Shown here piece by piece: positions 3,188-29,991 of a DNA stretch of 64,000 nt (the stretch's first letter is position 1; each line of letters begins with the position of its first letter). Below the pieces are notes generated by a model, which was not told the origin of the DNA, did no database searches, and worked only from the letters and a program-made list of their open reading frames with translations. The translations under genes were made by a program, and so were the position numbers. Source of the stretch: Candidatus Bathyarchaeia archaeon (lineage in GTDB: Archaea; Thermoproteota; Bathyarchaeia; Bathyarchaeales; Bathycorpusculaceae); assembly GCA_049516875.1 (NCBI GenBank), contig JBEKSS010000003.1, forward strand, positions 1-64,000. Direction: 5' to 3'.

Positions 3188-3277
3188 TCAGAACAAGAAG
3201 TTTGCCAACTCATAGAAGCAGGCTTCGAATTCGTCTGTGACTATGAAGGCAACAAAGTCTTCCGAAAACGGAAGTGA
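3188..3277 (+). pseudogene. C-terminal tail remnant of a tyrosine integrase
   Basis: Reads SEQEVCQLIEAGFEFVCDYEGNKVFRKRK*, homologous to the integrase remnant tail at 15885-15975 (ETDVCALIDAGFDYVCDYEGHKVFRKRKY*). Confidence 0.8.
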
Positions 3278-3285
3278 ACCCTTAA

Positions 3286-3344
3286 AAGAAATCTCATAAG
3301 ACCGGGCTGGGTTCGTCTGTAGCGGGCGGGGTTGGATTTGCACC
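3286..3344 (-). mobile_element. att-like copy of the tRNA-Arg 3' end plus flank (direct repeat of 14629-14687)
   Basis: 53/59 nt identical to 14629-14687 by manual alignment; includes the acceptor strand and part of the T-arm. Confidence 0.9.
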
Positions 3345-3526
3345 TCAGACCAGGTGACGAAATCTCCGCAACTCCCATTCCCTTCGTGTTTAGGAGTGCT
3401 TGCCTTCCAACGAATCGTCACACAGGGTCAGGAGCTTCAAAAGAACTGGTAAGTGTTTTTTTACTAAAGGTTTCTTTAGAAAAAGGGCTTTTAGAACCTT
3501 GGCACACATTCTTAGAGGGGTAAATC

Positions 3527-8513: not shown

Positions 8514-8998
8514 CACGCAGGTTAGAACCCAAAGAGGTTCAGACTTCTACCGTCCTACACCGAAAGAGCAAACGCGATACAAAGCTCCAAAAGCTTCCTG
8601 TCGCACATACCTTGCCACTAACCTGAAGACCTATCAAGACTGCCAAGGAAATCTTGTCGACCTACGTTCTCTTTGAAACCCCTCTTTTTTAGCGCGCTTT
8701 CCTTAGCAGCTTTCACAACTTTATTATCGTAGCAATGACTTCGGACTGTTGAGGTGATTTTGATGGGTGTGAAGCGCGCGCGAGAAGAGCCAGCATCATA
8801 TCCATTCTCATCCTATTCAGAAGCAGAGTTAGACTATTGGAACTCATTAGCATGTGATGTATTGTCTCCATTAGCATCATAATAATCTTCATTCTTCCTA
8901 TCCGCTCTCTGTTGCTTGTTCGAGTGTATGTTGCTTGACGTTGTTGTACATCGGAAAACGTATATTAACACTCAAGTCTCAGATGTATTGGGTTCATA

Positions 8999-9247
8999 AT
9001 GCTTAAACTCTACAACTTTCATTATTTGCAAAAAGATGGGATGTTGATAACGACCAAAAGACTTTGCGAACATTTTAGCGATGCTTTGGAATTAGCTCAA
9101 GATCTTGCTGATGAACATGAATGGAGACTAACGCATGTTGAGCAAGCAGCGATTATAGGATTGTCATTAAATACGCAGCCAGATCATGTTCAACCTCAAT
9201 TCATCAGTCATCCATACAAGAAGAACAATAAGAAGACGAGACTTTAG
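8999..9247 (+). CDS. Small hypothetical protein in an AT-rich, foreign-looking segment
   Basis: 82-aa ORF preceded by a TATA-like TATATTAA; no family recognised. Confidence 0.45.
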   Translation: MLKLYNFHYLQKDGMLITTKRLCEHFSDALELAQDLADEHEWRLTHVEQAAIIGLSLNTQPDHVQPQFISHPYKKNNKKTRL

Positions 9248-9520
9248 ATAAAGTTGCTTCAATAAAGCTTGCACATTTTCATGTTAATCTATCGTACGAT
9301 ATGACGCTGCACAAATGAAGTCGACAGATTAATCCGATCAGACAATGGCAGTTTGATGAATTAATGTGGCATCTAGGGCATCAACTTTCACCGTTAGATG
9401 TAAGTGATGTACTGAAGTGTGCTAGTTAAGAGAAAAAAGAGAGGGAAGAAAAAGCTAGTCATTGTCTAACTAGCTATCAACATTATGTCGAAAGTGCAGA
9501 ACAGAAAAACGCAATGAATC

Positions 9521-9982
9521 CTATTTTCCAGTTTTCAGTTTGAGATTAGCCATTGAATACAAGGCTCTCTTTGTCTCACGCAAAAGGTGAAGGTCTTTCT
9601 CCATTAGGAAAGCATCCACGTCTGCAAGTGCAACTTTTTTCAGATTATTGATTCTAGCCCAATCCACACATTTACCAACCAGCGAAGGAAGCTCATCTTT
9701 TTCCTCTTGTAGTGCTCGCCTTTGAGCAAGGAAATCTGCTCTTTGCATCTTTGACTGAACTTCGAAAGGCATTAGGAATTCTTGAACCCCCTTGCTTTCC
9801 CAGAAATGGCGAGAAGCAGAATCATAGTCAAGTCCTACTTCTGTTTGTTCCTTCTTTGTGAACTCAAAGATTTCCACAGCAAGCTCCTCAGATGTTCTCT
9901 TCTCTATCCAGTCTGGAACTTCTGCTTCCTCTCTGTGAAAAATCAATCCACCTCTCTCTATGCCCTCTTGTATCAGAGGCAT
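9521..9982 (-). CDS. Hypothetical protein
   Basis: 153-aa ORF with protein-like composition, co-oriented with 10053-10910. Confidence 0.55.
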   Translation of the reverse strand: MPLIQEGIERGGLIFHREEAEVPDWIEKRTSEELAVEIFEFTKKEQTEVGLDYDSASRHFWESKGVQEFLMPFEVQSKMQRADFLAQRRALQEEKDELPSLVGKCVDWARINNLKKVALADVDAFLMEKDLHLLRETKRALYSMANLKLKTGK

Positions 9983-10052
9983 TCCTCAGCTCTGAACATC
10001 ATGCATTCATTTCCCTTACAAGTCTCTCTTAGGAATGGACAGAAAGTATTGG

Positions 10053-10910
10053 TCATGTTTCTACTTTCTTTATCTCTTCAAATATTTCGTCAATCTTACC
10101 GCTAAGTGTTCTCTTGTAGGTATTTACTAGGGCAATCAGTTCATCAAGTCTGTTTTTGCAGGTTGTTCTGAGACTATCTGCAATTCTCGAGATTGCATCT
10201 ATGGATTCTATGTTTTTCTGAAGTTCCAAGCAATGATTGTTTATTTTAGTAATGACTTTACCGAGTTCTTCTCCTTTCAGTTCTTTCTTCTTCATTGAGT
10301 CTAATTCAGCTACTTTCTTAATCACATAGAAGGCGAAAAGATGCCCAGACCAATTCAGTTCACTGTTGACAACAAAGACTGCTGTTCTATTCATTTCAGT
10401 CTTGAGGTTAATACAGCCTGAGCACTTTGTTATCCCAGAACGCATAGAGACAAAGATGCCATAACGTGTTCCACGTCTCTCCATATCTCTCCAGAATTTA
10501 TCAATCTCTTGAGAAGGAACTGTTCCTTTGTAATCCTTAAGTTCAATCATAACGGGTATCTTAGTATCAGAAGTGGTAGCTAGAATATCAGTATACTTCC
10601 CTATTCCTGAAACATCCTCAAACGAGTCGTCCATGAAGTGTTCTTGAAGACTTCGGAAGATTGTTTCTACTGTAATCTCTCCTTTCTTTGCTGGTGTTGC
10701 TATGGTTGGGATAATTAACTTCAATTGCTCCCTTATCATCTCAATGTCTGACTTCAGTGGTGCAAAGAAATCCTCTATTGTCTCCTTTCGTGTTCCTATT
10801 GATGCGTGAGAGACAACCATCTCTCCAAGAATGATATATTTTTCAATAATCTCATCTCTTCGAGTGGCTGGAACCCCCTCAACAATTTCTATGGCTCTAG
10901 GGTCTGTCAA
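10053..10910 (-). CDS. Restriction-endonuclease-like PD-(D/E)XK protein with coiled coils
   Basis: KKGE...TDIL...VMIELKDY...EIDKFWRDM. An upstream ATG near 10954 is out of frame across an A7 run. Confidence 0.6.
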   Translation of the reverse strand: MTDPRAIEIVEGVPATRRDEIIEKYIILGEMVVSHASIGTRKETIEDFFAPLKSDIEMIREQLKLIIPTIATPAKKGEITVETIFRSLQEHFMDDSFEDVSGIGKYTDILATTSDTKIPVMIELKDYKGTVPSQEIDKFWRDMERRGTRYGIFVSMRSGITKCSGCINLKTEMNRTAVFVVNSELNWSGHLFAFYVIKKVAELDSMKKKELKGEELGKVITKINNHCLELQKNIESIDAISRIADSLRTTCKNRLDELIALVNTYKRTLSGKIDEIFEEIKKVET

Positions 10911-11096
10911 TGTCAGATTTAACTTTTTTTCTTAACAGAGAGTGAGACTGTCATGTTCTCACGGATAAAGTACCAGTTGATTCAACTTATAGTTTATGAA
11001 TGACAGATAAGAATCAAAGGTTATGCTTCATGGGAAATGCAAAACACAGAAATCTTAAGTCTGCACAGAAACAGAAGACAAACTAGGGGTCCAAAA

Positions 11097-11597
11097 ATGA
11101 GTGAAAAGAAAATGGTTAGAAGAAATGTCGCTGTTGCACTTGGAATAATCTGCGTCATATTGATAGCTGCATTAGGTGTGGCGATGAGTGAGGCTTTCTA
11201 TTCGAGTTCACGAGTGGCTGACCTTACCAATACTCTTAATCTAGGAAAAACTGAGGTTTGGGTGATGGAGAAAAACTATTATCAACTGCCGAGTAATTAC
11301 ACTGATTGGACATTCTCCATCAACGTTTCGGGTTACGTTCTAGTCTCCTTGGTAACCCTTGGTAACGTATACGTCCGAGTAATCTACAATGCTTCTGTCC
11401 CCGTTGGTATCGTGGATGGTACGCTATTCGACTATGGCACATTTTATAATTATCAATATGATTCCCAGATAACTGTCAGTGGTCGCGGAACAGCAGTTTT
11501 TCCAGTCTTGCCCTCTTCAAACATTGAAATCAGAATCGGCAACACATATACGTTTGGTGGGTCAGGTGAAACCGTATCAATAATATACTACTACTAA
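11097..11597 (+). CDS. Hypothetical membrane-anchored protein
   Basis: MSEKKMVRRNVAVALGIICVILIAAL anchor, beta-rich C-terminus, T-rich tract after the stop. Confidence 0.7.
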   Translation: MSEKKMVRRNVAVALGIICVILIAALGVAMSEAFYSSSRVADLTNTLNLGKTEVWVMEKNYYQLPSNYTDWTFSINVSGYVLVSLVTLGNVYVRVIYNASVPVGIVDGTLFDYGTFYNYQYDSQITVSGRGTAVFPVLPSSNIEIRIGNTYTFGGSGETVSIIYYY

Positions 11598-11871
11598 ACC
11601 CGTTCTCTTTTTTCAGTTTAAGCCATGCAGTACAGAAGGCTCTAGCACGACTCAAAGCGCGTGCGACGTTTTACATCAGACTCAGAAGAATGTATCCATA
11701 ACGTCTAACAAAAGAGGGCCTAAAGCACCTACCTTCTACACATCAAATAGGTCACTCATTTAAAGCCCATACATTTGCTGTTGACTTGTATTCCATATCC
11801 GTATAAAAACGGGGTTTGCAAATACTAGTAAGGGGCATCTGAAAGCTACAAACACAATACCCAAAACATCA

Positions 11872-12110
11872 CAGGGTACCATCATAGATTTTGCATGGCA
11901 ACTTAAGAAAGATGGGTTAAGCGATACGACCATTAGGAATTATTCGCTGTCATTGGAAATGTTGGTGAAGAGAGGCGCTGATATCTTCGATCCAGATTCC
12001 ATTAAGGCTGTCATTGCATCTCAGAAATCGAGTAATGCTACTAAGGTACAGGTCATTGCTGCTTACAAGAAGTTTGCTGTTATCAATAACATCTCATGGA
12101 CTCCACGCAT
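11872..12110 (+). pseudogene. N-terminal (core-binding) fragment of a tyrosine integrase
   Basis: IIDFAWQLKKDGLSDTTIRNYS..LEMLVKRGADIFDPDSIKAVIA...AYKKF...SWTP resembles archaeal integrase N-termini; similarity ends at GCGCGCTA (12111). Confidence 0.7.
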
Positions 12111-12285
12111 GCGCGCTAGAAGATGGATTAATTTATGGATATCATGATGACCATTTGACTAGGCTTCAAGCGATACTTCTATTACAGAGGTTGAATAAGT
12201 TCGGTCTAGTTGAAGGATTTAAGGGAACTCAAAGTCATTTTGGAAAATCAACCATTAAGTTTGTAGAATAAGAAGGTGAGAAAAG

Positions 12286-12441
12286 ATGAGCGAGAGAAGA
12301 TACAACAGAAGTAAAAACTACAGATGTCCATCATGTAGTCTAGAATTCAAGAGTGAGGGAGTACCTGGACACTGTCCACGATGTCACTCTGTAATTGAGA
12401 TTAAAGAAAATAATAGGAGATCCCAGCGCGCGCGCTATTAG
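12286..12441 (+). CDS. Small zinc-ribbon protein (51 aa, CPSC...CPRC), below the ORF-track cutoff
   Basis: AAGGTGA RBS then MSERRYNRSKNYRCPSCSLEFKSEGVPGHCPRCHSVIEI; the last codons run through the GCGCGC junction. Confidence 0.6.
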   Translation: MSERRYNRSKNYRCPSCSLEFKSEGVPGHCPRCHSVIEIKENNRRSQRARY

Positions 12442-12482
12442 TGGTACTGAAAAAGCATTAAGCTCAAGCGCGCCAAAGAGGA

Positions 12483-12683
12483 TTAGGGCCGTCTTTGTAT
12501 GAGTATCCTGTCTATTTTTCCTTCTGCTAGTTGTTCCTGCAACTCTTTGACGAAGCTGTAGAATTCGTCTGGAAACATGGCGGCTTCTGTGTTCATGTCG
12601 AACGTTTTTGTCTGGGCCACCGTGTTGGCGTAAAGGCCGTTCTTAATTCCTTCCACACTAACCCGTACCATACCATCAGCCAT
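12483..12683 (-). CDS. Small hypothetical protein
   Basis: 66-aa ORF with a TATA-like element upstream, between junction motifs. Confidence 0.55.
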   Translation of the reverse strand: MADGMVRVSVEGIKNGLYANTVAQTKTFDMNTEAAMFPDEFYSFVKELQEQLAEGKIDRILIQRRP

Positions 12684-12738
12684 AGAAAGAAGAAAGGAAG
12701 ATAGATTATATACATATCTAACAAGTCAAGGCGCGCTA

Positions 12739-12936
12739 CTATTTCATTATTGATTGTACTCTGCCGACTTTGCCGTCTGTCAGTCGTACCTTGATTCCGT
12801 GGGGGTGAGTTGAGCTGTTGGTGAGGATATTCTTGACGATGCCCTCAGTTAATTTGCCGTTGCGTTGGTCCTGCTTCAAGACGATTCTTACGCGGATACC
12901 AGGATTGATTTGGCTCCTCTGCTGATTAGGTTGCAT
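12739..12936 (-). CDS. YwbE/DUF2196 family protein
   Basis: IVLKQDQRNGKLTEGIVKNILTNSSTHPHGIKVRL..GKVGRV signature. Confidence 0.9.
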   Translation of the reverse strand: MQPNQQRSQINPGIRVRIVLKQDQRNGKLTEGIVKNILTNSSTHPHGIKVRLTDGKVGRVQSIMK

Positions 12937-13079
12937 TTCCGATAATAGGTGCTTCGCGGCTTATAGTGTATTCGCACTGCTTATCCAAAACGATGAATTG
13001 GTGCCGAGGGCAAGCGCGCGCACATATTAAGCCGCACCAACAAATACGATTCATATGTTTGCGGAGATGAACGGCAGGC

Positions 13080-13310
13080 ATGAATATGTGGAAGTGGCTT
13101 TCAGCATTATGTGCGTTTCAATTCATAGTAATGGTCATTGCAGTTTCTTTGTTTTACTATCCATTAAGAATTCAACTAATGCAATTGTCGGATTTCTTAT
13201 TCGGCATAGGGCTTTCAGTGGCGATATTTCTAATAGGCACACCCCTCTTTTGGTTGCGGGGAACAGAAGCGGATAAACGCCATCGTATGAAGACTAAAGA
13301 TGATATCTGA
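13080..13310 (+). CDS. Small membrane protein
   Basis: Two hydrophobic helices. Confidence 0.5.
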   Translation: MNMWKWLSALCAFQFIVMVIAVSLFYYPLRIQLMQLSDFLFGIGLSVAIFLIGTPLFWLRGTEADKRHRMKTKDDI

Positions 13311-13323
13311 ATGCCTAAGAAGA

Positions 13324-14118
13324 TCAAACTTTGTCCAGAATAGCGCGCACTGTTTCCGCCGGAATATTCTTTTTCACTAGGATCGGAATGAGTAAGCCGT
13401 ACGCTGAGATGAATATGAGTGGCGTGTGAAGGATCAAATTCCATAAGGTATAGCCTGGCATCATAAAAAATGACATGGCGTTAAACACACCGATTACCAG
13501 ACCAACGAAACTTGTGGTTCTTAGAACAAACATGTTTACCTTTGGATAGATTAGGGTTAGGATGGCTATTATGAGGGGCGTGGTGGGACAGTACATCACT
13601 CCGAAGGAAGATGTGAGTACCAACAAAGGATTGAAGTCTGGATTCAGGCTAGCGTTTATCGGAGACCAAAAAGCCAGGAAAACAAAGGGCAAAACCCAGT
13701 ATCTCCAAGCGGGGAGCCTCTCAAAAGTATACTCGTTATGAGGTCTGTAGACTTCCCACATCCAGAACAGACCCACGACAAAAATAGGGACCAAATTACC
13801 TGTTATCACGGCAAGCCCATAGTGTTCAGTCACAGCGATGTGATTACTGAAAGCAAAGAAGAAGAACAGGATTCCGAAAAAGGCGTCGGTAACTCTGCCT
13901 ATTCTCGATCCGTATAGATACAAGGCTATGAGAAGTACAATAGTGATAACGTGAATTATTGGACTGAGCCACAGGTACGCAGCAGAGGTTTGTATCAGGA
14001 CGTCTTTAATCACAAGTGAGCTGTCTTGCGGAGAGAAAGGCACAGCAGCAAAAGATGGAAGAAATACGCAACCCAAAAGCAGTACAAGAATTAGTATGGT
14101 CTTTCTGCTTTCCTTCAT
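13324..14118 (-). CDS. Polytopic membrane protein of unknown function
   Basis: About 8 hydrophobic segments; TAGCGCGC falls within the last codons. Confidence 0.7.
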   Translation of the reverse strand: MKESRKTILILVLLLGCVFLPSFAAVPFSPQDSSLVIKDVLIQTSAAYLWLSPIIHVITIVLLIALYLYGSRIGRVTDAFFGILFFFFAFSNHIAVTEHYGLAVITGNLVPIFVVGLFWMWEVYRPHNEYTFERLPAWRYWVLPFVFLAFWSPINASLNPDFNPLLVLTSSFGVMYCPTTPLIIAILTLIYPKVNMFVLRTTSFVGLVIGVFNAMSFFMMPGYTLWNLILHTPLIFISAYGLLIPILVKKNIPAETVRAILDKV

Positions 14119-14318
14119 AAGCTCATCAAGGCAACTATAACTACGCCCGCGTTTAAAAGTCAAACTTGACGAGGAACGCAATAATCAAGCACACGCGCGC
14201 CTCACAAACATTACACTCATTTTCATATGCTTAACATCGAGCGTGCTTCATGCTGGAATCACAAAAACATTAATCTGCTCGAATATCCACGAAAGGGTTT
14301 TTGCGGAGCTAAAATAGT

Positions 14319-14615
14319 TCATTCAGATCCGAAAGATGTTTGTGAACGTTGCAGTGCACCGTTCTCATCTTTCCTTCTTCGTCTTCGCCGGGCATTGAGA
14401 AACAGAGCTAATTCCACTATAAGGAAGACTATTATCACAGAAGTCACGAGTACTGGAATTACGTAGGGGGCCCAAACGCATGGGATTTTCACTTGTCCAA
14501 ACAGGGGCAACTCCCAGACAACCCACATGTTGGAGAAAGCATCCACGTAGATGCCGTAGATGTTTTGGATCGAAGAGTCAAAAAGAACGATCCTCGCGTC
14601 GTTACTGTGGTTCAA
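14319..14615 (-). pseudogene. Probable 5'-truncated membrane-protein gene fragment
   Basis: TM helix plus basic tail (LALFLNARRRRRR); the protein-like part starts immediately at the TAGCGCACGCGCTA junction. Confidence 0.45.
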
Positions 14616-14665
14616 TAGCGCACGCGCTAAGAGATTTCGTAAGACCGGGCTGGGTTCGTCCGTAG

Positions 14666-14768
14666 CGGGCGGGGTGGGATTTGAACCCACGACCACCAAC
14701 TTAGGAGGCTGGTGCTCTATCCGTGCTGAGCTTCGGTAGAGAGCTAATTAGACTCCCTCTACCCGCCC
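14666..14768 (-). tRNA. tRNA-Arg(CCT) with a 28-nt intron at position 9/10 (intron 14732-14759)
   Basis: Spliced sequence GGGCGGG TA GCTC AGCACGGATA GAGC A CCAGC CT-CCT-AA GTTGG TGGTC GTGGG TTCAAAT CCCAC CCCGCCC G folds as a cloverleaf; the intron boundary forms a BHB-like motif. Confidence 0.88.
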
Positions 14769-15559
14769 ATATTTTCCCGCCCACTATTTCCCAAGTTTTC
14801 CAGCGTTATTACTGCAACATTTGGGCCATGGAGTAATCTTGAGTATTGAGATTTATATTTCTGAATGGTTACGATAACAGTTTCGTTGAACCCCGATTTT
14901 TGGTAATCCCTGATTTTCTGATTCAACTCTCTTGCCCTTTGTTCTACATCATGCCAATACGTGGCCTCCAGTATTACGCGGTCTATTGTGAAGTCAGGAA
15001 GATAGAACCTATTTTCACAGTTTACGAGTTGCTCGTATTCAAATCTGACGCTATTCTCCGTGAGTATCTTTGCTACATCTAATTCCAAAGGATTGCGGTA
15101 TTTTTGGTTGTGATATTTGTACTTGTATTTCAGAGAATGTTTGATTTTCGCTTGTTGCATCTGATGATATTCATACGGCTTGTTGATCTTCATCTGAGTG
15201 TGCCAGTTCCGTGATCCAACTCTCCCTCCTCTGCACTTCCAAGAGTGCTGTTGCTGCGCGTATTTTGGATCGAAGAAACCGTGCCCACTCTTTTTGGTGT
15301 TGAAACCGCCTAAGCGTCGGCCCCAATTGTCCTTTCTGAGCCCAGTCAGAGAGGTTCTGAACTTCCCGCACTCTGAGAAAGTCGCGACAAGCTTCTGGAA
15401 AACCCTGTAATGCATCAAATATTTCTCGTCGCGCCAGTCTCGCACAGTACTGGACCCAATGCCAAGTTTGGACGCCATGTTTTTCCAAGACGTTCCGTAC
15501 AGATCTCTTGCAAAGAGTATCAATTCTCTTTGTTTTCCTTCGGTGAATATGCATCGCAT
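14759..15559 (-). CDS. Free-standing putative homing-type endonuclease (HTH + basic linker + PD-(D/E)XK/Vsr-like domain)
   Basis: SWKNMASKLGIGSSTVRDWR HTH; NWGRRLGG and CRGGRVG linker; LELDVAKIL...FEYEQ...FYLPDFTI..VILEATYWHD nuclease motifs. Confidence 0.7.
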   Translation of the reverse strand: MRCIFTEGKQRELILFARDLYGTSWKNMASKLGIGSSTVRDWRDEKYLMHYRVFQKLVATFSECGKFRTSLTGLRKDNWGRRLGGFNTKKSGHGFFDPKYAQQQHSWKCRGGRVGSRNWHTQMKINKPYEYHQMQQAKIKHSLKYKYKYHNQKYRNPLELDVAKILTENSVRFEYEQLVNCENRFYLPDFTIDRVILEATYWHDVEQRARELNQKIRDYQKSGFNETVIVTIQKYKSQYSRLLHGPNVAVITLENLGNSGRENMGG

Positions 15560-15618
15560 ACTGTTGTCAATTTCAAGAATATTTTTAGCTACTTAAGACT
15601 ATGGTCAGAAGGTACTGA

Positions 15619-15629
15619 CTACTCGCCCA
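15619..15629 (-). repeat. Second copy of the tRNA-Arg 5' end (TGGGCGAGTAG vs TGGGCGGGTAG at 14759-14769)
   Basis: 10/11 match; followed by a GTCAG/CTGAC hairpin and preceded by TATA-like TTAAGTTAAAA about 30-40 nt upstream. Confidence 0.55.
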
Positions 15630-15681
15630 CGCACGCTCAAAACATTAGACGCTTGTGGATTTTAACTTAATGTCACGCTCC

Positions 15682-15697
15682 CGAAAAACTTTAACTA
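15682..15697 (+). promoter_or_regulatory. BRE/TATA promoter of tRNA-Leu
   Basis: CGAAAAAC-TTTAACTA about 30 nt upstream of the tRNA 5' end. Confidence 0.55.
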
Positions 15698-15725
15698 CGA
15701 AGGAACATCAACCTAAGTGGCTAAA

Positions 15726-15842
15726 GCGGGGGTACCCGAGCCAGGTCTAAATAGGCGGGCCAGAAAAAGCCTAAGACAAGGGGGAGGACTTAAGATCCTC
15801 TGGCGAAGGCCTCCGTGGGTTCGAATCCCACCCCCCGCACCA
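15726..15842 (+). tRNA. tRNA-Leu(TAA) with encoded CCA and a 29-nt D-arm intron (15751-15779, position ~22/23)
   Basis: GCGGGGG/CCCCCGC acceptor stem, GAGGA-CT-TAA-GA-TCCTC anticodon arm, long variable arm, GTGGG TTCGAAT CCCAC T-arm; intron with GTCT/AGAC central helix and TAGGC/GCCTA inner helix. Confidence 0.92.
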
Positions 15843-15884
15843 CCTATGGTGAAAACGACGGGGGGTTTGTCCAGAAGCCTAGTT

Positions 15885-16080
15885 TCAGTATTTCCGTTTC
15901 CTGAAGACTTTGTGGCCTTCATAGTCGCAGACATAATCGAACCCTGCGTCTATTAGCGCACACACGTCGGTTTCAGTTTTGGCAACTTTGGAAACGTATT
16001 CTTGTTGATCTTTGAAAAGTCCTTCGGCAAGTTGGACATACATAAGCGTGTTCTTGATGCTTTTGTGGCCGAGTGTCTGC
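15885..16080 (-). pseudogene. C-terminal fragment of a tyrosine integrase
   Basis: QTLGHKSIKNTLMY (box II His and catalytic Tyr); 5' part lost at the GCGCGCGCG run at 16082; converges on tRNA-Leu. Confidence 0.85.
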
Positions 16081-16179
16081 AGCGCGCGCGGCGTCACAAT
16101 TTTCACAAAAATTACGATCCTTCTAGTGCGTCTAGTTAATTATCTAGCGCGCGAGCCGAGAAATAAGCGCGCCTATGCT

Positions 16180-16761
16180 TCAAGATGCCAGCCGTTTGAT
16201 TTGGTCATGCCGGAAGCAGTGGACGAGATGATCATTCACCATGCCCACGGCCTGCATAAAGGCATAACAGATCGTGGGTCCGACGAACTTGAACCCCCTC
16301 TTTTTCAGCTCCCTGCTCATCGCCCTCGACTCCTCGGATTCTGCCGGCAGATTTGAGAAATCTCTAAGAGCATGGTTGATCGTTCTTCCCTGAACGAACT
16401 TCCAAATGAACGCGTCGAAGGAACCGAATTCTTTCCTAACTTCTCTGAACCGGCCTGCATTGTTGATGGCCGCCAGAATCTTCGCCCTGTTCCGAATCAC
16501 GCCTGGATCGTTCATCAAGCGCTCCACGTCTTCATCCATGTATCGGGCTATCTTCTCCGGGTTGAAATTGTCGAAGGCTTTTCTCAGAGCCACTCTTCTC
16601 TTGAGTATGAGCTCCCACGTTAACCCTGCCTGGAACCCTTCGAGCGTTAGAAACTCAAACAGCGTCCTATCATCATGAACCGGAGTTCCCCACTCCTCAT
16701 CATGATACTTAACGTAAAGCGGGTTATCCGTGTCCCAGCATCTAATCGGCTTCTTTTCCAT
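16180..16761 (-). CDS. tag: DNA-3-methyladenine glycosylase I
   Basis: RCW...YHDEEWG.P..DD..LFE.L.LEGFQAGL.W, IRNRAKI, FKFVGPT..YAFMQAVG.VNDH...C. Confidence 0.95.
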   Translation of the reverse strand: MEKKPIRCWDTDNPLYVKYHDEEWGTPVHDDRTLFEFLTLEGFQAGLTWELILKRRVALRKAFDNFNPEKIARYMDEDVERLMNDPGVIRNRAKILAAINNAGRFREVRKEFGSFDAFIWKFVQGRTINHALRDFSNLPAESEESRAMSRELKKRGFKFVGPTICYAFMQAVGMVNDHLVHCFRHDQIKRLAS

Positions 16762-16925
16762 AGTTTACAATGGTCCCGCTGGAGATTTAAACTTCTTGAG
16801 GCATCTGAAATCACAGAAAGACTATCGAAAATACCCAACTAGCGCGCGTGCCTGCCGCAATTCTTAATATTCAAAAGTACTAATTACCGCAGCAGAAGAG
16901 ACATAGCGCGCGCGGCGTACCTGTG

Positions 16926-17291
16926 TTAGCGTTTGGTGTCCTTACCTAGGCTTTTTCTTAGTTGGTCAAGCGTTTCTTTTGGCTTTGGCGCTTGTTCGTG
17001 GAGTTTGGAAATCTTTTCACATTTGTAGTCCTCGCAGTAGGCACAATTCTCGATGTTTCTCTCTTGTCCGCATTTTCTGATCTCGCATATTTTAGTGTAG
17101 TTAAAGACGCGTGTTCCTTTGGTTTGGCAGCCGTCGCAGTTGATGTCTTCTGGCTTGAACGGGTGACCGTACTCTTTTGTCCATAGCTCCGCCACTCTAA
17201 TCCTTTCCGCATCATCATTCGTCTTCGTTGCTACGAAGGTCGGGCAATCAGAACACGTAATTCCACAATAGGCTATGATCTTCTCCATCAA
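16926..17291 (-). CDS. DUF3795 Cys-rich protein
   Basis: IAYCGITCSDCP...CDGC...C.IRKC...NCAYCEDY.C. Confidence 0.85.
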   Translation of the reverse strand: MMEKIIAYCGITCSDCPTFVATKTNDDAERIRVAELWTKEYGHPFKPEDINCDGCQTKGTRVFNYTKICEIRKCGQERNIENCAYCEDYKCEKISKLHEQAPKPKETLDQLRKSLGKDTKR

Positions 17292-17419
17292 GATCCCTCA
17301 GAATAGATTGGCTTGTGCGCAACGCCGCTAATATCTGTAGCGCTCGCTGGGAACGAATAATATTTTTCAGAAAGTCAAAAGACCAAAAATCGGTTGCGAA
17401 GGGCAGTTGCGCGCGCGCT

Positions 17420-17638
17420 CAGATTTGATTTTGGTTTGACACACGAGATAAAACTTTGCCCCCAAACCCCAAAACGTACGACTACTACTCCTATATACTC
17501 TACCCCTATTATCTCTCTGTTACATACAGTTACAATTACAGACAGACAAAGACACAGACAGACACAGACAAACAAAAAGAACGAGCTTTGCGGAAAAGTT
17601 ATAGCTGAACCGAAAGAACCAGTAATCGTGGTGAGAGT
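17420..17638. repeat. Low-complexity, strand-biased non-coding segment with GACA(CA) microrepeats
   Basis: acagacagacaaagacacagacagacacagacaaac; flanked by GCGCGC runs at 17409 and 17641. Confidence 0.6.
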
Positions 17639-17686
17639 TAGCGCGCGCCTTCTATCAGTCTGTTTGAGCCAGTTTTTGGTTTTGCG

Positions 17687-19204
17687 TCAATCTTGCTGTT
17701 TCAGTTTTTTCAGCATTGCGTTCCCATTTTGGTTATCTGGGTTCAGCTCGAGTGATTTCTCATAGTTTTCGATAGCATGCACTTTATCTCCTGAATGCAA
17801 GTACATTTCTCCTAGAGTATCATATGCGTTCCAGTACTTCGGGTATTCGTTGATAGCATGCTTCATTATTTTGATTGCATCGTGGAGTTTTTGGTCGAAG
17901 ACAAGTAAGTAGGCCAAGAAGATTAGAGTGTTCTCGCCTGCTACGCTTAGACCAGAGCCTGTTCTGCTTATTTCTCGATGTTTTTCTATCGCAGCTGCGA
18001 CTCCTTTTCGCTGCGTTAATAGGAATAGTGTGGTCAAGGCTTCAGGATGGACACGTTTTGGTGGAACATAATTCCATTCATACTCTCTTGCTATATTCTG
18101 AACCAAGTATTCTTCGACAAGCATTCCAACCTGAGAATTGGTCATTAAAGCTGCACCTTTTCCTGTGTTACCATACAAGACAAGCATTGCCTGGAAGCCA
18201 GCATCGTCTCCGATGTGCCCGAACAAGTCCGGTCTTGTTTCGTCACCTAGAAAGAAGCCTAGTCCCATTCTGTCTGGGTGTTCATCATTGCCTAAGGCAA
18301 GTTCTTCTACACGCTCTACCTGTGGTTTCAGCATCTCTCGAGTCATAATCTCAGATAGTAGCAGATTTGATTTGCCCAGCCTTGACAAAGCAATCTCAAT
18401 TGCGAATCTGGCTAGGTCAGAAGGCGTAGTCCATAATCCTCCTGCAGCCATCTCGGGGTAAACATGCCATTTTCCATGGACAACTTTGCCGTCAGCGAGG
18501 GTTCCGCTTGCCGCCTCAGCAATCCGCGATTCTGGAAGCGGTTGTTCAAAAGTACTGTGCTCCATTCCGATCTTGCTGAGTACCATGTCATGCATGAGTC
18601 GAGGAAACGGTCTGCCAGTTACATCTATCATTAGTTGTTGAGCAATCATCGTTCCTCCACCTGAGTAACGCCATCTTGTACCTGGAACAGAATCTATACG
18701 AATTGGCAAATTGCTCGCAGGAGGCTCCCCGTTCAGGACTTGGAGTAGAGAAGGGATCGATTCATCTATGTCATAACCGTTGAAGCCATGCACTGTTAGT
18801 CCAGCACTGTGACAAAGGATGCGGCGCAGTGTGACCTTCTCATCTTTAGTAAATCTATTTTCAGGCACTTTCCAGCTGACAAGTCTCTTGTTCACGTCCT
18901 CATCAAGCGAAAGCTTTCGTCGTTCTACGAGATACAATGCTCCAGCTGCGGCGACAGGTTTGCTAACTGAGCCTGCCTGAAAGAGTGTATTTGTCGTGAC
19001 AGGCGTCGTCGTACCTGCTTCTGCTACACCATAACCTTTGGCCCATACGATCTTGAAGTTATCGATGACAGCGACGCTTAAGCCTGGAACCCTGTACATT
19101 TGCATCAATTTCTGAAGGGTCAGTTCGAAAGGTAATTCATTTTTATCCAGCAATATCGGGTGAAACCCGTTCTCGACCCTCTCAATTCGCTCAGCCAATT
19201 TCAT
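17687..19204 (-). CDS. Serine hydrolase (beta-lactamase/AmpC-like) with C-terminal TPR
   Basis: FQAGSVSKP (SxxK), RYSGGG, FGHIG; NAYDTLGEMY...YEKSLELNPDN TPR. Confidence 0.9.
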   Translation of the reverse strand: MKLAERIERVENGFHPILLDKNELPFELTLQKLMQMYRVPGLSVAVIDNFKIVWAKGYGVAEAGTTTPVTTNTLFQAGSVSKPVAAAGALYLVERRKLSLDEDVNKRLVSWKVPENRFTKDEKVTLRRILCHSAGLTVHGFNGYDIDESIPSLLQVLNGEPPASNLPIRIDSVPGTRWRYSGGGTMIAQQLMIDVTGRPFPRLMHDMVLSKIGMEHSTFEQPLPESRIAEAASGTLADGKVVHGKWHVYPEMAAGGLWTTPSDLARFAIEIALSRLGKSNLLLSEIMTREMLKPQVERVEELALGNDEHPDRMGLGFFLGDETRPDLFGHIGDDAGFQAMLVLYGNTGKGAALMTNSQVGMLVEEYLVQNIAREYEWNYVPPKRVHPEALTTLFLLTQRKGVAAAIEKHREISRTGSGLSVAGENTLIFLAYLLVFDQKLHDAIKIMKHAINEYPKYWNAYDTLGEMYLHSGDKVHAIENYEKSLELNPDNQNGNAMLKKLKQQD

Positions 19205-24419: not shown

Positions 24420-25100
24420 ATGGGAAAATTGAGTATGGAAGATGTCTTTAAGGCCTTGGCAAAGCCGCTCCCTGAATTCGAAATGAAGCCGGGGAAGACA
24501 GCCTTGCTTCTGGTTGACTTTCAAAACCTTGTGAGCTCAAAACCACTGCTTCAAGAGGCACTGGATGCAGGGTTGCCTGAAAGAGAAGTGAGAGAGGCCT
24601 TGCGAGAATATGATCAAAGGGTCAAGAGAGCGGTGAAAAACGCACGGAGGATACTGCAGGCCTGCAGAAAGAAAGGTTACGACATAGTGCATATCAAGTT
24701 AGGGGCGCAGACCAGCAATCCCAGGCATACGGCGAAGGTAAACAGAAAAGCTAACTTCATTGTGCCGATGGACGCGGAAAAAGGCAGGTTCCTCGATGAG
24801 GTGAAGCCGGTGAAAGGAGAATTAATTTTCCCAAAGACAAACGGGGGAGCATTCACGGGGACCAATCTAGACTTCGTCCTAAGGAACATGGATATCGAGA
24901 GCATCATCGTAACGGGATTCCTAACCGATCAATGCGTCCTCGCAACTGTAATCTACGGCGGAGACATAGGGTACGACGTTCTCTTGGTTGAGGATGCGTG
25001 CACAGGAACCACCAAAGAAAATCATGATGCGGTAATAAGACTTGCAAGAGACGTGTTCCTAAAGGTCAAACCAACTGCGGAACTCCTGCGAATTCTGTAA
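24420..25100 (+). CDS. Isochorismatase-like cysteine hydrolase
   Basis: ALLLVDFQN, K...AF.GT.L, GFLTDQCV, VEDAC. Confidence 0.9.
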   Translation: MGKLSMEDVFKALAKPLPEFEMKPGKTALLLVDFQNLVSSKPLLQEALDAGLPEREVREALREYDQRVKRAVKNARRILQACRKKGYDIVHIKLGAQTSNPRHTAKVNRKANFIVPMDAEKGRFLDEVKPVKGELIFPKTNGGAFTGTNLDFVLRNMDIESIIVTGFLTDQCVLATVIYGGDIGYDVLLVEDACTGTTKENHDAVIRLARDVFLKVKPTAELLRIL

Positions 25101-25149
25101 GAAGAAGCATCTTTAGATTCTCTACACCTGCTTGCGAATAGCGCGCGCG

Positions 25150-25353
25150 ACGACGATGTTGAAGGACGTGTCCCAGGCATGGATAGCCATCAATATGACA
25201 GACCTGACTCTTGGCAGCTCTTGCTCAGGCGTTTTGAGAACACCGACGTAGTCGATCTTTCCATAGGGCAAGTCGCGGAGCCTGCCAGGATTTGAAATGC
25301 CCACAGCTGCGAAACCGACTTTCCTTGCTTCTTTCTTCATGTTCTGGGCCAAC
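25150..25353 (-). pseudogene. 3'-truncated epoxyqueuosine-reductase (QueG)-like Fe-S protein fragment
   Basis: KKEARKVGFAAVGIS...PEQELPRVRSVILMA; cut at TAGCGCGCGCG (25139) before any Cys clusters. Confidence 0.6.
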
Positions 25354-25371
25354 GTCACGATTAAGCACTTC

Positions 25372-25725
25372 CTACTGGCTCTGGAGTGTCTTCCGAATCT
25401 TTTCGAGGTTTTTTGTGGCAACGGGGTCGCCCGACAAATACTCTTTCAGCTTCGCGCAGGGATAATCGTCACAGTTGGCACAGGTCTTGACTTTCTTTTC
25501 TCTTGCGCACGGTCGTATATCGCAGAGTTTTCGGCAAAAACCAGAAACCAGATTGGATTTGCATCCGTGACAATCAACGTCTTCTGGTTTGAACTTGATC
25601 TCGCCTTGATCAGACCAGTGTCTGGCTATCTGCTTCTTCCATTCAACGTCTTTCAATTGAGTCGCTTTAAACGCCTTATACTCGTTGCAGTCCAGTCCAC
25701 AATAAGCAATCATTTCAGACATCAT
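25372..25725 (-). CDS. DUF3795 Cys-rich protein (second copy)
   Basis: IAYCGLDC...CHGC...FC...CDIRPC...TCANCDDYPC. Confidence 0.85.
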   Translation of the reverse strand: MMSEMIAYCGLDCNEYKAFKATQLKDVEWKKQIARHWSDQGEIKFKPEDVDCHGCKSNLVSGFCRKLCDIRPCAREKKVKTCANCDDYPCAKLKEYLSGDPVATKNLEKIRKTLQSQ

Positions 25726-29760: not shown

Positions 29761-29991
29761 AACCCAACTGAAGGAAATCCCCCGCACGATGCATGCAGAA
29801 CAAGAACAAAGAAGCTCCAGCTGACTGATATCATTCGAAAAAGTCCATTTTAGCTTTTGAGAATACTGGTTTGAGAAGGCAGCTTTCCTCGAAAGAGGGG
29901 AAATGCAGCAACCCAGTCATGTAGAAACAGTGCTTCAAGAAAGGTTTACATTTGAAAGGGCAGATACGTTAAGTGTGATTGTAACGACTTC

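Follow-up and report, generated by a model that had tools for sequence, protein, structure and literature searches.

Alternating-GC runs at the broken ends of integrase genes and exchanged gene modules in a Candidatus Bathyarchaeia genome

Integrase remnants and a module train beside tRNA-Arg and tRNA-Leu

We analyzed the first 64 kb of contig C3 (JBEKSS010000003.1) of a Candidatus Bathyarchaeia archaeon, hereafter the window, in which short runs of alternating G and C lie at the broken ends of integrase genes and between small gene modules near the genes for tRNA-Arg and tRNA-Leu. The source genome (G000; 2.43 Mb in 20 contigs) was compared with its four congeners (G001 to G004), these being the five genomes of the genus; the stretch is also present in contigs from peat, wetland, and sediment metagenomes. 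A run was defined as a maximal alternating-GC stretch of at least 6 nt. Integrase pieces were located with a hidden Markov model (HMM) built from 18 full-length relatives, and the features of the locus, including the attachment (att) arms, are as follows.

3188..3274, forward strand: integrase C-terminal tail remnant (…EVCQLIEAGFEFVCDYEGNKVFRKRK*), HMM positions 343-371, E 7e-8, also read from the translation
3286..3345, reverse strand: displaced att copy, consisting of the tRNA-Arg 3' half and ~25 nt downstream, aligned to 14629-14690
11842..12108, forward strand: integrase N-terminal fragment (core-binding region), cut on its C side, HMM positions 77-163, E 6e-28
12111..12116: GCGCGC joint where the integrase fragment adjoins the first module; G001, G002, G003, and two metagenomes use this boundary as well, each with a different left neighbor
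12117..14618: module train, with runs at 12426-12435, 12468-12473, 12731-12736, 13014-13021, 13343-13348, and 14194-14200
14619..14628: imperfect joint GCGCACGCGC (inside TAGCGCACGCGCTA), directly before the att arm, from reading of the sequence
14629..14690, reverse strand: att arm, which overlaps the intact tRNA-Arg gene in its 3' half, from the alignment
14661..14769, reverse strand: tRNA-Arg (anticodon CCU, read by eye) with a non-canonical intron near the D arm; Rfam tRNA match at 14673-14734 (42.7 bits), outer ends by eye
15726..15845, forward strand: intron-containing tRNA-Leu (anticodon UAA, read by eye); acceptor and T arm found with the tmRNA model
15888..16079, reverse strand: C-terminal piece of an integrase, with LGH…Y and the tail retained, that converges on the tRNA-Leu 3' end, HMM positions 312-371 at 16079-15891, E 7.5e-23
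16082..16090: GCGCGCGCG joint where the tRNA-Leu integrase is truncated on its 5' side and where population variants insert or replace DNA

Relatives of the N-terminal fragment were found in 93 of 151 genomes of the order, in which residues 2-78 of the 79-residue fragment were matched within open frames of ~310-490 amino acids. The fragment ends 2 nt before GCGCGC at 12111-12116 and has no tRNA similarity at that end, and the tRNA-Leu piece begins 2 nt beyond the run at 16082-16090; the tail at 3188-3274 has no run within 90 nt upstream. A Pfam search of the short fragments themselves gave no match. The full-length relative L023 matched Phage_integrase (PF00589, 1.2e-21), the tyrosine recombinase family, and has a zinc ribbon at its N terminus. 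The C-terminal sequence of full-length relatives is …AGFEYV…FRKRK*, and their genes converge on a tRNA 3' end, a layout with convergence on the tRNA or att sequence that recurs in the tRNA-Leu piece and in the 3188-3274 tail. None of the pieces has the complete catalytic domain (Arg…His-x-x-Arg…His…Tyr), the tRNA-Leu piece having only LGH…Y and the N-terminal piece only HMM positions 77-163, so all three are inactive remnants. Judged from these profile matches and their layout, they are decayed remnants of tRNA-linked archaeal tyrosine integrases.

The two att arms are alike over ~60 nt, reaching into the tRNA-Arg 3' half, and start at ~14627-14629 and 3284-3286, right after ...GCGCT (…GCGCACGCGCT). 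The tRNA-Arg and tRNA-Leu genes are divergent and stand side by side in all four congeners. A second att copy for tRNA-Leu was sought near 25100 and none was found. Both tRNA genes have non-canonical introns; ARAGORN with default settings finds neither in the window and, when introns are allowed, mis-calls the tRNA-Arg as Gly. Between the two genes lies an orphan open reading frame (ORF) at 14759-15559 on the reverse strand (266 aa), with no counterpart in 40 relatives. It shows weak matches to an N-terminal helix-turn-helix and to Phage_endo_I and, by eye, a PD-(D/E)xK-like …PDF…ILE… motif, and population contigs skip it by joining 14732 to ~15641-15726. As an enzyme acting on the motif it was rejected, being present only in G000 among 41 genomes.

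The preliminary description of the window, made from the sequence alone, had reported an integrase N-terminal piece pointing toward tRNA-Arg and cut at the motif, about 2.5 kb of motif-delimited modules, an att arm resuming after GCGCTA at 14629, and, on the Leu side, retention of the catalytic LGH...Y end with everything upstream lost. All of these are borne out by the profile matches, the run positions, and the att alignment, the last module boundary being the imperfect GCGCACGCGC at 14619. Each interval between runs in 12111-14628 holds no ORF or one, and both strands are used. The features of the train and of the QueG-like locus are listed below.

12286-12441, forward strand: zinc-ribbon ORF in the module train
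12483-12683, reverse strand: 66-aa ORF in the module train
12739-12936, reverse strand: DUF2196 gene in the module train
13080-13310, forward strand: 76-aa ORF in the module train
13324-14181, reverse strand: 285-aa membrane ORF in the module train
14319-14618, reverse strand: ORF fragment in the module train, described earlier as a membrane-protein fragment
25141..25149: GCGCGCGCG joint where the QueG-like fragment ends, from reading of the sequence
25152..25358, reverse strand: N-terminal 70 residues of a QueG-like (Fer4_16) protein, the remainder of the gene being gone, by BLASTP to G021

A cut at the motif had also been described for the QueG-like gene, and the alignment agrees with it. 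Residues 22-90 of the ORF at 25122-25421 (reverse strand) correspond to residues 2-70 of a 248-aa protein of G021, a genome outside the genus (BLASTP, 62% identity, E 6e-30), and the homology stops at nucleotide 25152, 3 nt from the run at 25141-25149. Pfam assigns the G021 relative to Fer4_16, and it follows a DUF3795 gene, with the gene order as in the window. The membrane-protein fragment at 14319-14618 has no homologue in the five genomes searched. The DUF2196 module was not counted by itself as evidence of transfer, since many Bathyarchaeia carry the gene at 74-96% identity; most of them have no run in the fetched locus, and none has one within ~400 nt of the gene.

Some further observations concern the assembly of the window. 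The contig start (1-120) is a tandem repeat of a 16-nt unit (TACAGTAATGTATAAT…), and 45-122 also matches the end of contig C1; contig ends reflect assembly overlaps and not insertion sequences. The segment 11042-11180, the 5' part of the ORF at 11037-11597, is multi-copy, with matches on C1, C7, C10, C14, and C15 and in all congeners, and the bin 11027-11253 falls at very high contig depth in all four metagenomes described below.

Distribution of the runs and their coincidence with breakpoints

The window contains 44 copies of GCGCGC, where 10.2 would be expected and 100 shuffles gave at most 21, and the genome contains 1,412. Non-coding DNA, taken as that outside ORFs of at least 60 aa, makes up only 14% of the genome and yet holds 785 of these copies; the split is only approximate because the ORFs were called crudely, by a greedy longest-ORF procedure. 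Eleven other GC-rich hexamers, the overlapping CGCGCG excepted, have 5-19% of their copies in non-coding DNA. The genome contains 1,123 runs, and 0.79% of its positions lie within 5 nt of one. The flanks show a preference only for A at -1 (54%) and for T at +1 (49%). TA on one side of a run is statistically independent of TA on the other: both sides carry TA in 38 runs (36 expected), and 759 runs lack TA on either side. By length, 503 runs have 6 nt, 204 have 7, 240 have 8, 112 have 9, 56 have 10, and 8 have 11 or more; the odd lengths are accounted for by chance flanks, and the drop from (GC)5 to (GC)6 is repeated in five relatives. Intergenic regions of every orientation bear the motif at 16-26%, and it tends to lie nearer stops than starts.

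The runs form clusters: their number per 10 kb has a mean of 4.6 and a variance of 14.3, a variance-to-mean ratio of ~3. In the window, 34 lie before position 29,938, in ~30 kb of variable DNA that forms a patchwork in comparison with the congeners, and three lie after it, in a 34-kb syntenic core that is collinear with all four congeners at 77-88% identity. The both-strand sum of TAGCGCGCGC is 48-231 in each of the five genus genomes, against 6-22 for the reversed control; among 36 genomes outside the genus it is 142 in G021, 56 in G018, 7-19 in G013, G019, G023, and G024, and 0-3 in the remaining 30. High abundance of the motif is confined to this genus and a few sister genera.

The truncated integrase genes provide the closest view of single joints. 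Seven of the 11 truncated integrase ends in G000 lie within 5 nt of a run, compared with the 0.79% background (binomial 6e-13), and the seven cuts fall at seven different protein positions. By our own count, relatives and metagenome loci add 15 truncated ends, of which 5 have a run at or within 10 nt (L031, L035, L038, L154, and L161), and in L041 the run is 20 nt off. G004 has its tRNA-Leu integrase broken off at a different codon, where a run (CGCGCGCGCG) is again present. The preliminary description proposed alignment with full-length homologues and a search for native GCGC at the break positions. The last homologous bases lie 2-3 nt from the runs, and the 18 intact integrases contain no GCGCGC; of 126 gene-by-position windows around the seven truncation positions, 9 contain GCGC or CGCG, which does not exceed background. 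The relatives are distant, but because of this lack of GCGCGC and of any GCGC excess the run is not simply native sequence. Downstream of tRNA-Leu, G004 has GAC[CGCGCGCGC]TATTC where G002 and G000 have GACGGGGGG, pointing to added sequence. In G001 the copy of the N-terminal fragment has decayed so far that it no longer reveals which bases were native at the break.

Comparison among species gave a second set of breakpoints. Core genes are 74-88% identical between congeners, and modules 90-99.6%. Window positions 8561-13357 are 99.6% identical in G004, positions 12108-14226 are 97-99% identical in G002 in another context, and single inter-run intervals recur at 90-98% identity in G001, G003, and G021. 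Four motif-rich 20-kb regions were compared with five relatives, taking segments of at least 88% identity, merging their endpoints (n = 70), and excluding endpoints at contig or query ends and tRNA matches. Of these endpoints, 27 (39%) fell within 5 nt of a run, compared with 2.2% for random positions in those regions and 4.9% for intergenic positions (P 8e-18). Unrelated sequence lies beyond the run at the junctions inspected, and the result is therefore no alignment artefact. Between G002 and G004, which are ~95% identical, a run lies within 8 nt at 12 of 26 replaced-segment boundaries and at 4 of 12 pure indels, the background within 6 nt being 0.7-0.9%. A side result of this comparison was an ordinary insertion sequence of 1,483 nt on contig C5 of G002 (reverse-complement coordinates 81510-82994 of the rebuilt contig), missing at the matching G004 site; it has a target duplication of 9 nt (CAGTTTGTC) and the inverted repeats GGTTCTGT(T/C)AACTTGTC.

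Finally, contigs from four independent metagenome runs of four studies, one of them possibly near the habitat of the source sample, were compared with the stretch. As the material consists of contigs, the comparison shows presence only, and parts with low or no cover were left out of the evidence. Population contigs diverge from the window at 12111 (in two metagenome runs, with two different neighbors), 12436, 12473/12475, 12731, and 13013 (in two metagenome runs). At 12111 the left neighbors differ among G000/G004, G002, and the two metagenomes. In one metagenome contig, 12434 is linked to 13023 from run to run without the two modules in between, and the GC run at 12468 carries an extra GC in three metagenome runs. 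On the Leu side, population contigs have DNA inserted or replaced at 16080-16083 and 16081-16146.

Possible origins of the joints

We consider that the runs are reusable joining sites of a lineage-specific rearrangement process, a reading to which we assign a probability of roughly 0.55; the bare association of runs with seams, whatever its cause, is considerably more secure. A link of the motif to rearrangement joints, and not just a terminator or regulatory function, is supported because truncated genes, inter-species segments, and population branches end at runs and because the motif is nearly absent from the core half of the window. In such a process, DNA would be cut and rejoined within or right beside a run, so that single-gene modules, MITE-like elements (MITE, miniature inverted-repeat transposable element), and multi-module blocks could be inserted, lost, replaced, or passed between species in either orientation, with one run at each seam. 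Where a run was joined to an arbitrary or weakly similar place, the neighboring gene would be truncated at the run, which on this reading is how the integrases were cut. One seam per junction, the use of both orientations, the reused boundaries, and the run-to-run joint fit recombination at a palindromic site.

That a dedicated enzyme stands behind the runs is a tentative proposal, to which we give a little under an even chance. Such an enzyme would make a 4-nt staggered cut in GCGCGC, with 6 nt left by in-register rejoining, 8 nt after a slip of 2 nt, and 10 nt after fill-in; we infer both this scheme and the direction and order of events at the tRNA-Arg locus. The fuller proposal, held with slightly less confidence, is that a clade of peat and sediment Bathyarchaeia may have a dedicated recombination system whose sole site is the (GC)3-5 palindrome, cut with a stagger by the predicted enzyme and rejoined without regard to orientation.

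The preliminary description had suggested that the motif-linked process acts after integration, disabling the resident element, and that the motif is probably no simple terminator or regulatory signal. The association with rearrangement joints stands; the data do not demonstrate in-place action after integration at tRNA-Arg. The identical block of N-terminal fragment, GCGCGC, and modules is found in G004 beside MoeA-like genes, far from its tRNA-Arg, and since the whole 8561-13357 block lies away from tRNA-Arg in that genome, the truncation predates the transfer of the block. Nor is the process aimed at integrases, since such joints also delimit MITEs, cargo units, and ordinary genes throughout the genome.

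Several results weigh against the runs being reusable joining sites. Roughly half of the endpoints, both those of truncated integrases and those of segments, lack a nearby run, several breakpoints lie 9-40 nt away from one, and many indels between G002 and G004 involve ordinary direct repeats of 5-14 nt and no run. Only two filled-versus-empty pairs with runs were recovered, and their empty sites held GCGC or GCGCACGCC and no full run. No enzyme for the motif was found: G000 has no match to the IS630-type transposase family (PF13358); no multi-copy transposase-like family was seen among 2,146 ORFs (at least 100 aa, at least 50% identity); and the five genus genomes have no match over the cut-off to C5 methyltransferase (PF00145), N4/N6 methylases and endonucleases not having been searched. 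Ku is encoded by G000, G002, and G004 but likewise by three genomes that lack the motif. As correlates, C5 methylase, IS630 transposase, and Ku were all discarded, none of them tracking the motif. The Ku homologue of G000 is encoded at C9:92481-93017 (E 1.7e-40), and end joining may therefore exist in the lineage. The one PF13358 match of the genus is on L271 (G004:C58:1-1927), a contig with no GCGCGC terminal inverted repeat (TIR) and with repeated ends, which make it circular or tandem; the encoded IS630-type transposase (347 aa) is GC-rich, unlike the AT-richer host, and suggests that the element is foreign or mis-binned.

A MITE family of ~150-300 bp does share the motif, its TIR being GCGCGC-ATGYNTGTTCCKAAAWTGG, and units of 467 bp, 0.9 kb, and 2 kb that carry cargo have these inverted repeats as well. 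G000 has ~16 full pairs of ~170-190 bp with 30-nt inverted repeats, always bracketed by GCGCGC (e.g., C9:103893-104080, C9:105334-105518, and C1:49396-49582), and variants of 153-300 bp, together with a 467-bp form bearing a winged-helix gene, are found in many peat and sediment metagenome contigs. It is therefore conceivable that the runs are transposon ends or footprints only, that is, the outermost 6 nt of TIRs of a TA-duplicating IS630/Tc1-like family, remaining as solo ends, footprints, and the edges of adjacent deletions induced by the transposase. The TIR-bounded cargo units are in keeping with this, as are the 46 TIRs of G000 that stand directly after GCGCGC, 31 of them preceded by TA by our own count, the G002 TIR at the very joint that in G000 and G004 adjoins the integrase fragment (window 12111), and the MITE end that adjoins the truncated integrase of L161. 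Excision of such an element would leave TA(GC)nTA palindromes as footprints. However, a recognizable TIR adjoins only 46 of the 1,123 runs; only 38 runs have TA on both sides, and 759 have it on neither. No matching transposase was found in G000 or in the genus, and none was apparent by eye beside 19 partner-less metagenome TIRs, whose ORFs received no family search; at 13 of these 19, a further run follows 59-1,248 nt inward. An all-against-all comparison also gave no MITE insertion polymorphism (0 events). We regard this explanation as improbable. It appears somewhat less so that the runs form a passive hotspot without an enzyme of their own, in which self-complementary microhomologies prone to form Z-DNA favor breaks and joining and are spread by exchanged modules. 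Joints of only 6-10 nt without conserved flanks beyond A at -1 and T at +1, run lengths that vary by GC units in populations, Ku in G000, and the short GCGC-type sequences in empty sites would all follow. DNA physics alone would hardly produce the near all-or-none abundance across genera, however, nor would slippage be expected to give a sharp limit at 10 nt; intact integrases show no GCGC excess at the truncation positions, and integration of a module through two 6-nt homologies would be very inefficient. On balance a passive hotspot is unlikely.

The remaining explanations fit the data less well. Runs might be filler, added to broken ends without a template or by snap-back synthesis during end joining, with the self-complementary tails then annealing; in the clearest cases the run is native to neither flank, the genes are cut at seven different integrase positions, and the length limit near 10 nt would be accommodated. 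A scar would not be expected, however, to give the same module boundary with different partners, which fits a site, or the run-to-run joint in a population, and both recovered empty sites already contained GCGC-type sequence, so that filler is a rather remote prospect. We give hardly any credence to an ordinary intergenic signal, such as a terminator, promoter element, or protein-binding site, with which breakpoints coincide merely because both are intergenic. The presence of the motif in intergenic regions of every orientation and its bias toward stops accord with such a signal; however, the expectation for intergenic endpoints is 4.9% against the 39% observed, runs lie inside broken genes, the core of 34 kb has three runs against 34 in the 30-kb island, and most related genera have none.

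Relation to known systems and significance

Integrons provide a close parallel, with trains of mostly single-gene modules separated by short palindromic recombination sites, modules shared between species, and presence or absence that varies within populations; integrons have reportedly been found in archaeal metagenome-assembled genomes. However, the sites here are 6-10 nt of alternating GC, whereas those of integrons are imperfect inverted repeats of 57-141 nt, and no attC-like recurring inverted repeat is present at module boundaries in 11800-17800. The modules here also lie on both strands, whereas integron cassettes share one orientation behind attI and the integrase gene, and the 1,123 runs are dispersed genome-wide instead of forming one array. 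No integron integrase or attI platform adjoins the train, the only pieces nearby being of the truncated tRNA type; IntI was not searched as a family. MITEs of the IS630/Tc1-mariner type resemble the system in having TIRs that end in GCGCGC with mostly TA flanks, a feature found in the MITE family only, and in the palindromic footprints expected of them; they differ in that 96% of the runs have no TIR and no cognate DDE transposase was found.

Enzymes of the BssHII type cleave G^CGCGC with a 4-nt stagger. The palindromic hexamer core is shared with such staggered cutting, and the series of 6, 8, and 10 nt fits in-register, slipped, and filled-in rejoining of CGCG overhangs. Unlike a type II restriction-modification system, the genus has no C5 methyltransferase over the cut-off, GCGCGC is not avoided in the genome, and no endonuclease was identified. 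DNA uptake sequences are known from Neisseria and the Pasteurellaceae; they are likewise lineage-specific motifs, and the present motif occurs about once per 2 kb in genomes that share DNA at high identity. In contrast to uptake sequences, it is palindromic, 6-10 nt long, located exactly at breakpoints, and clustered in variable regions instead of being spread evenly over the core. The SSV-type integrase gene is partitioned on integration, and the N- and C-terminal integrase pieces lying apart near tRNA genes recall this arrangement. However, the break here is at a GC run and not at att or tRNA sequence, and the att arm follows the integrase stop codon and is not inside the gene. A full-length integrase elsewhere in G000 (C10:8603-9610) has a 5' part that reads through tRNA-like sequence (…GSLGFEPR…), as expected of an SSV-type gene with att inside it.

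No paper on such a motif in Bathyarchaeia came up in full-text searches, and our results suggest an undescribed way of rearranging DNA. For annotators, gene fragments that end at runs are real truncations and not assembly faults, and alternating-GC runs provide a simple sequence marker for recently rearranged DNA in these genomes. If the runs are joining sites, any DNA between two of them would be a movable cassette with ~1,100 landing sites genome-wide, and the lineage would have a gene-shuffling system distinct from integrons, transposons, and phage integrases, with the erosion of resident mobile elements as a side effect. Should an enzyme be behind the runs, a recombinase or nuclease that has a palindromic site of 6 bp and joins ends in either orientation would represent a new kind of mobile-DNA machinery and a possible tool. 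Such a process would explain the exchange of single genes among uncultured Bathyarchaeia species that share only ~80% nucleotide identity.

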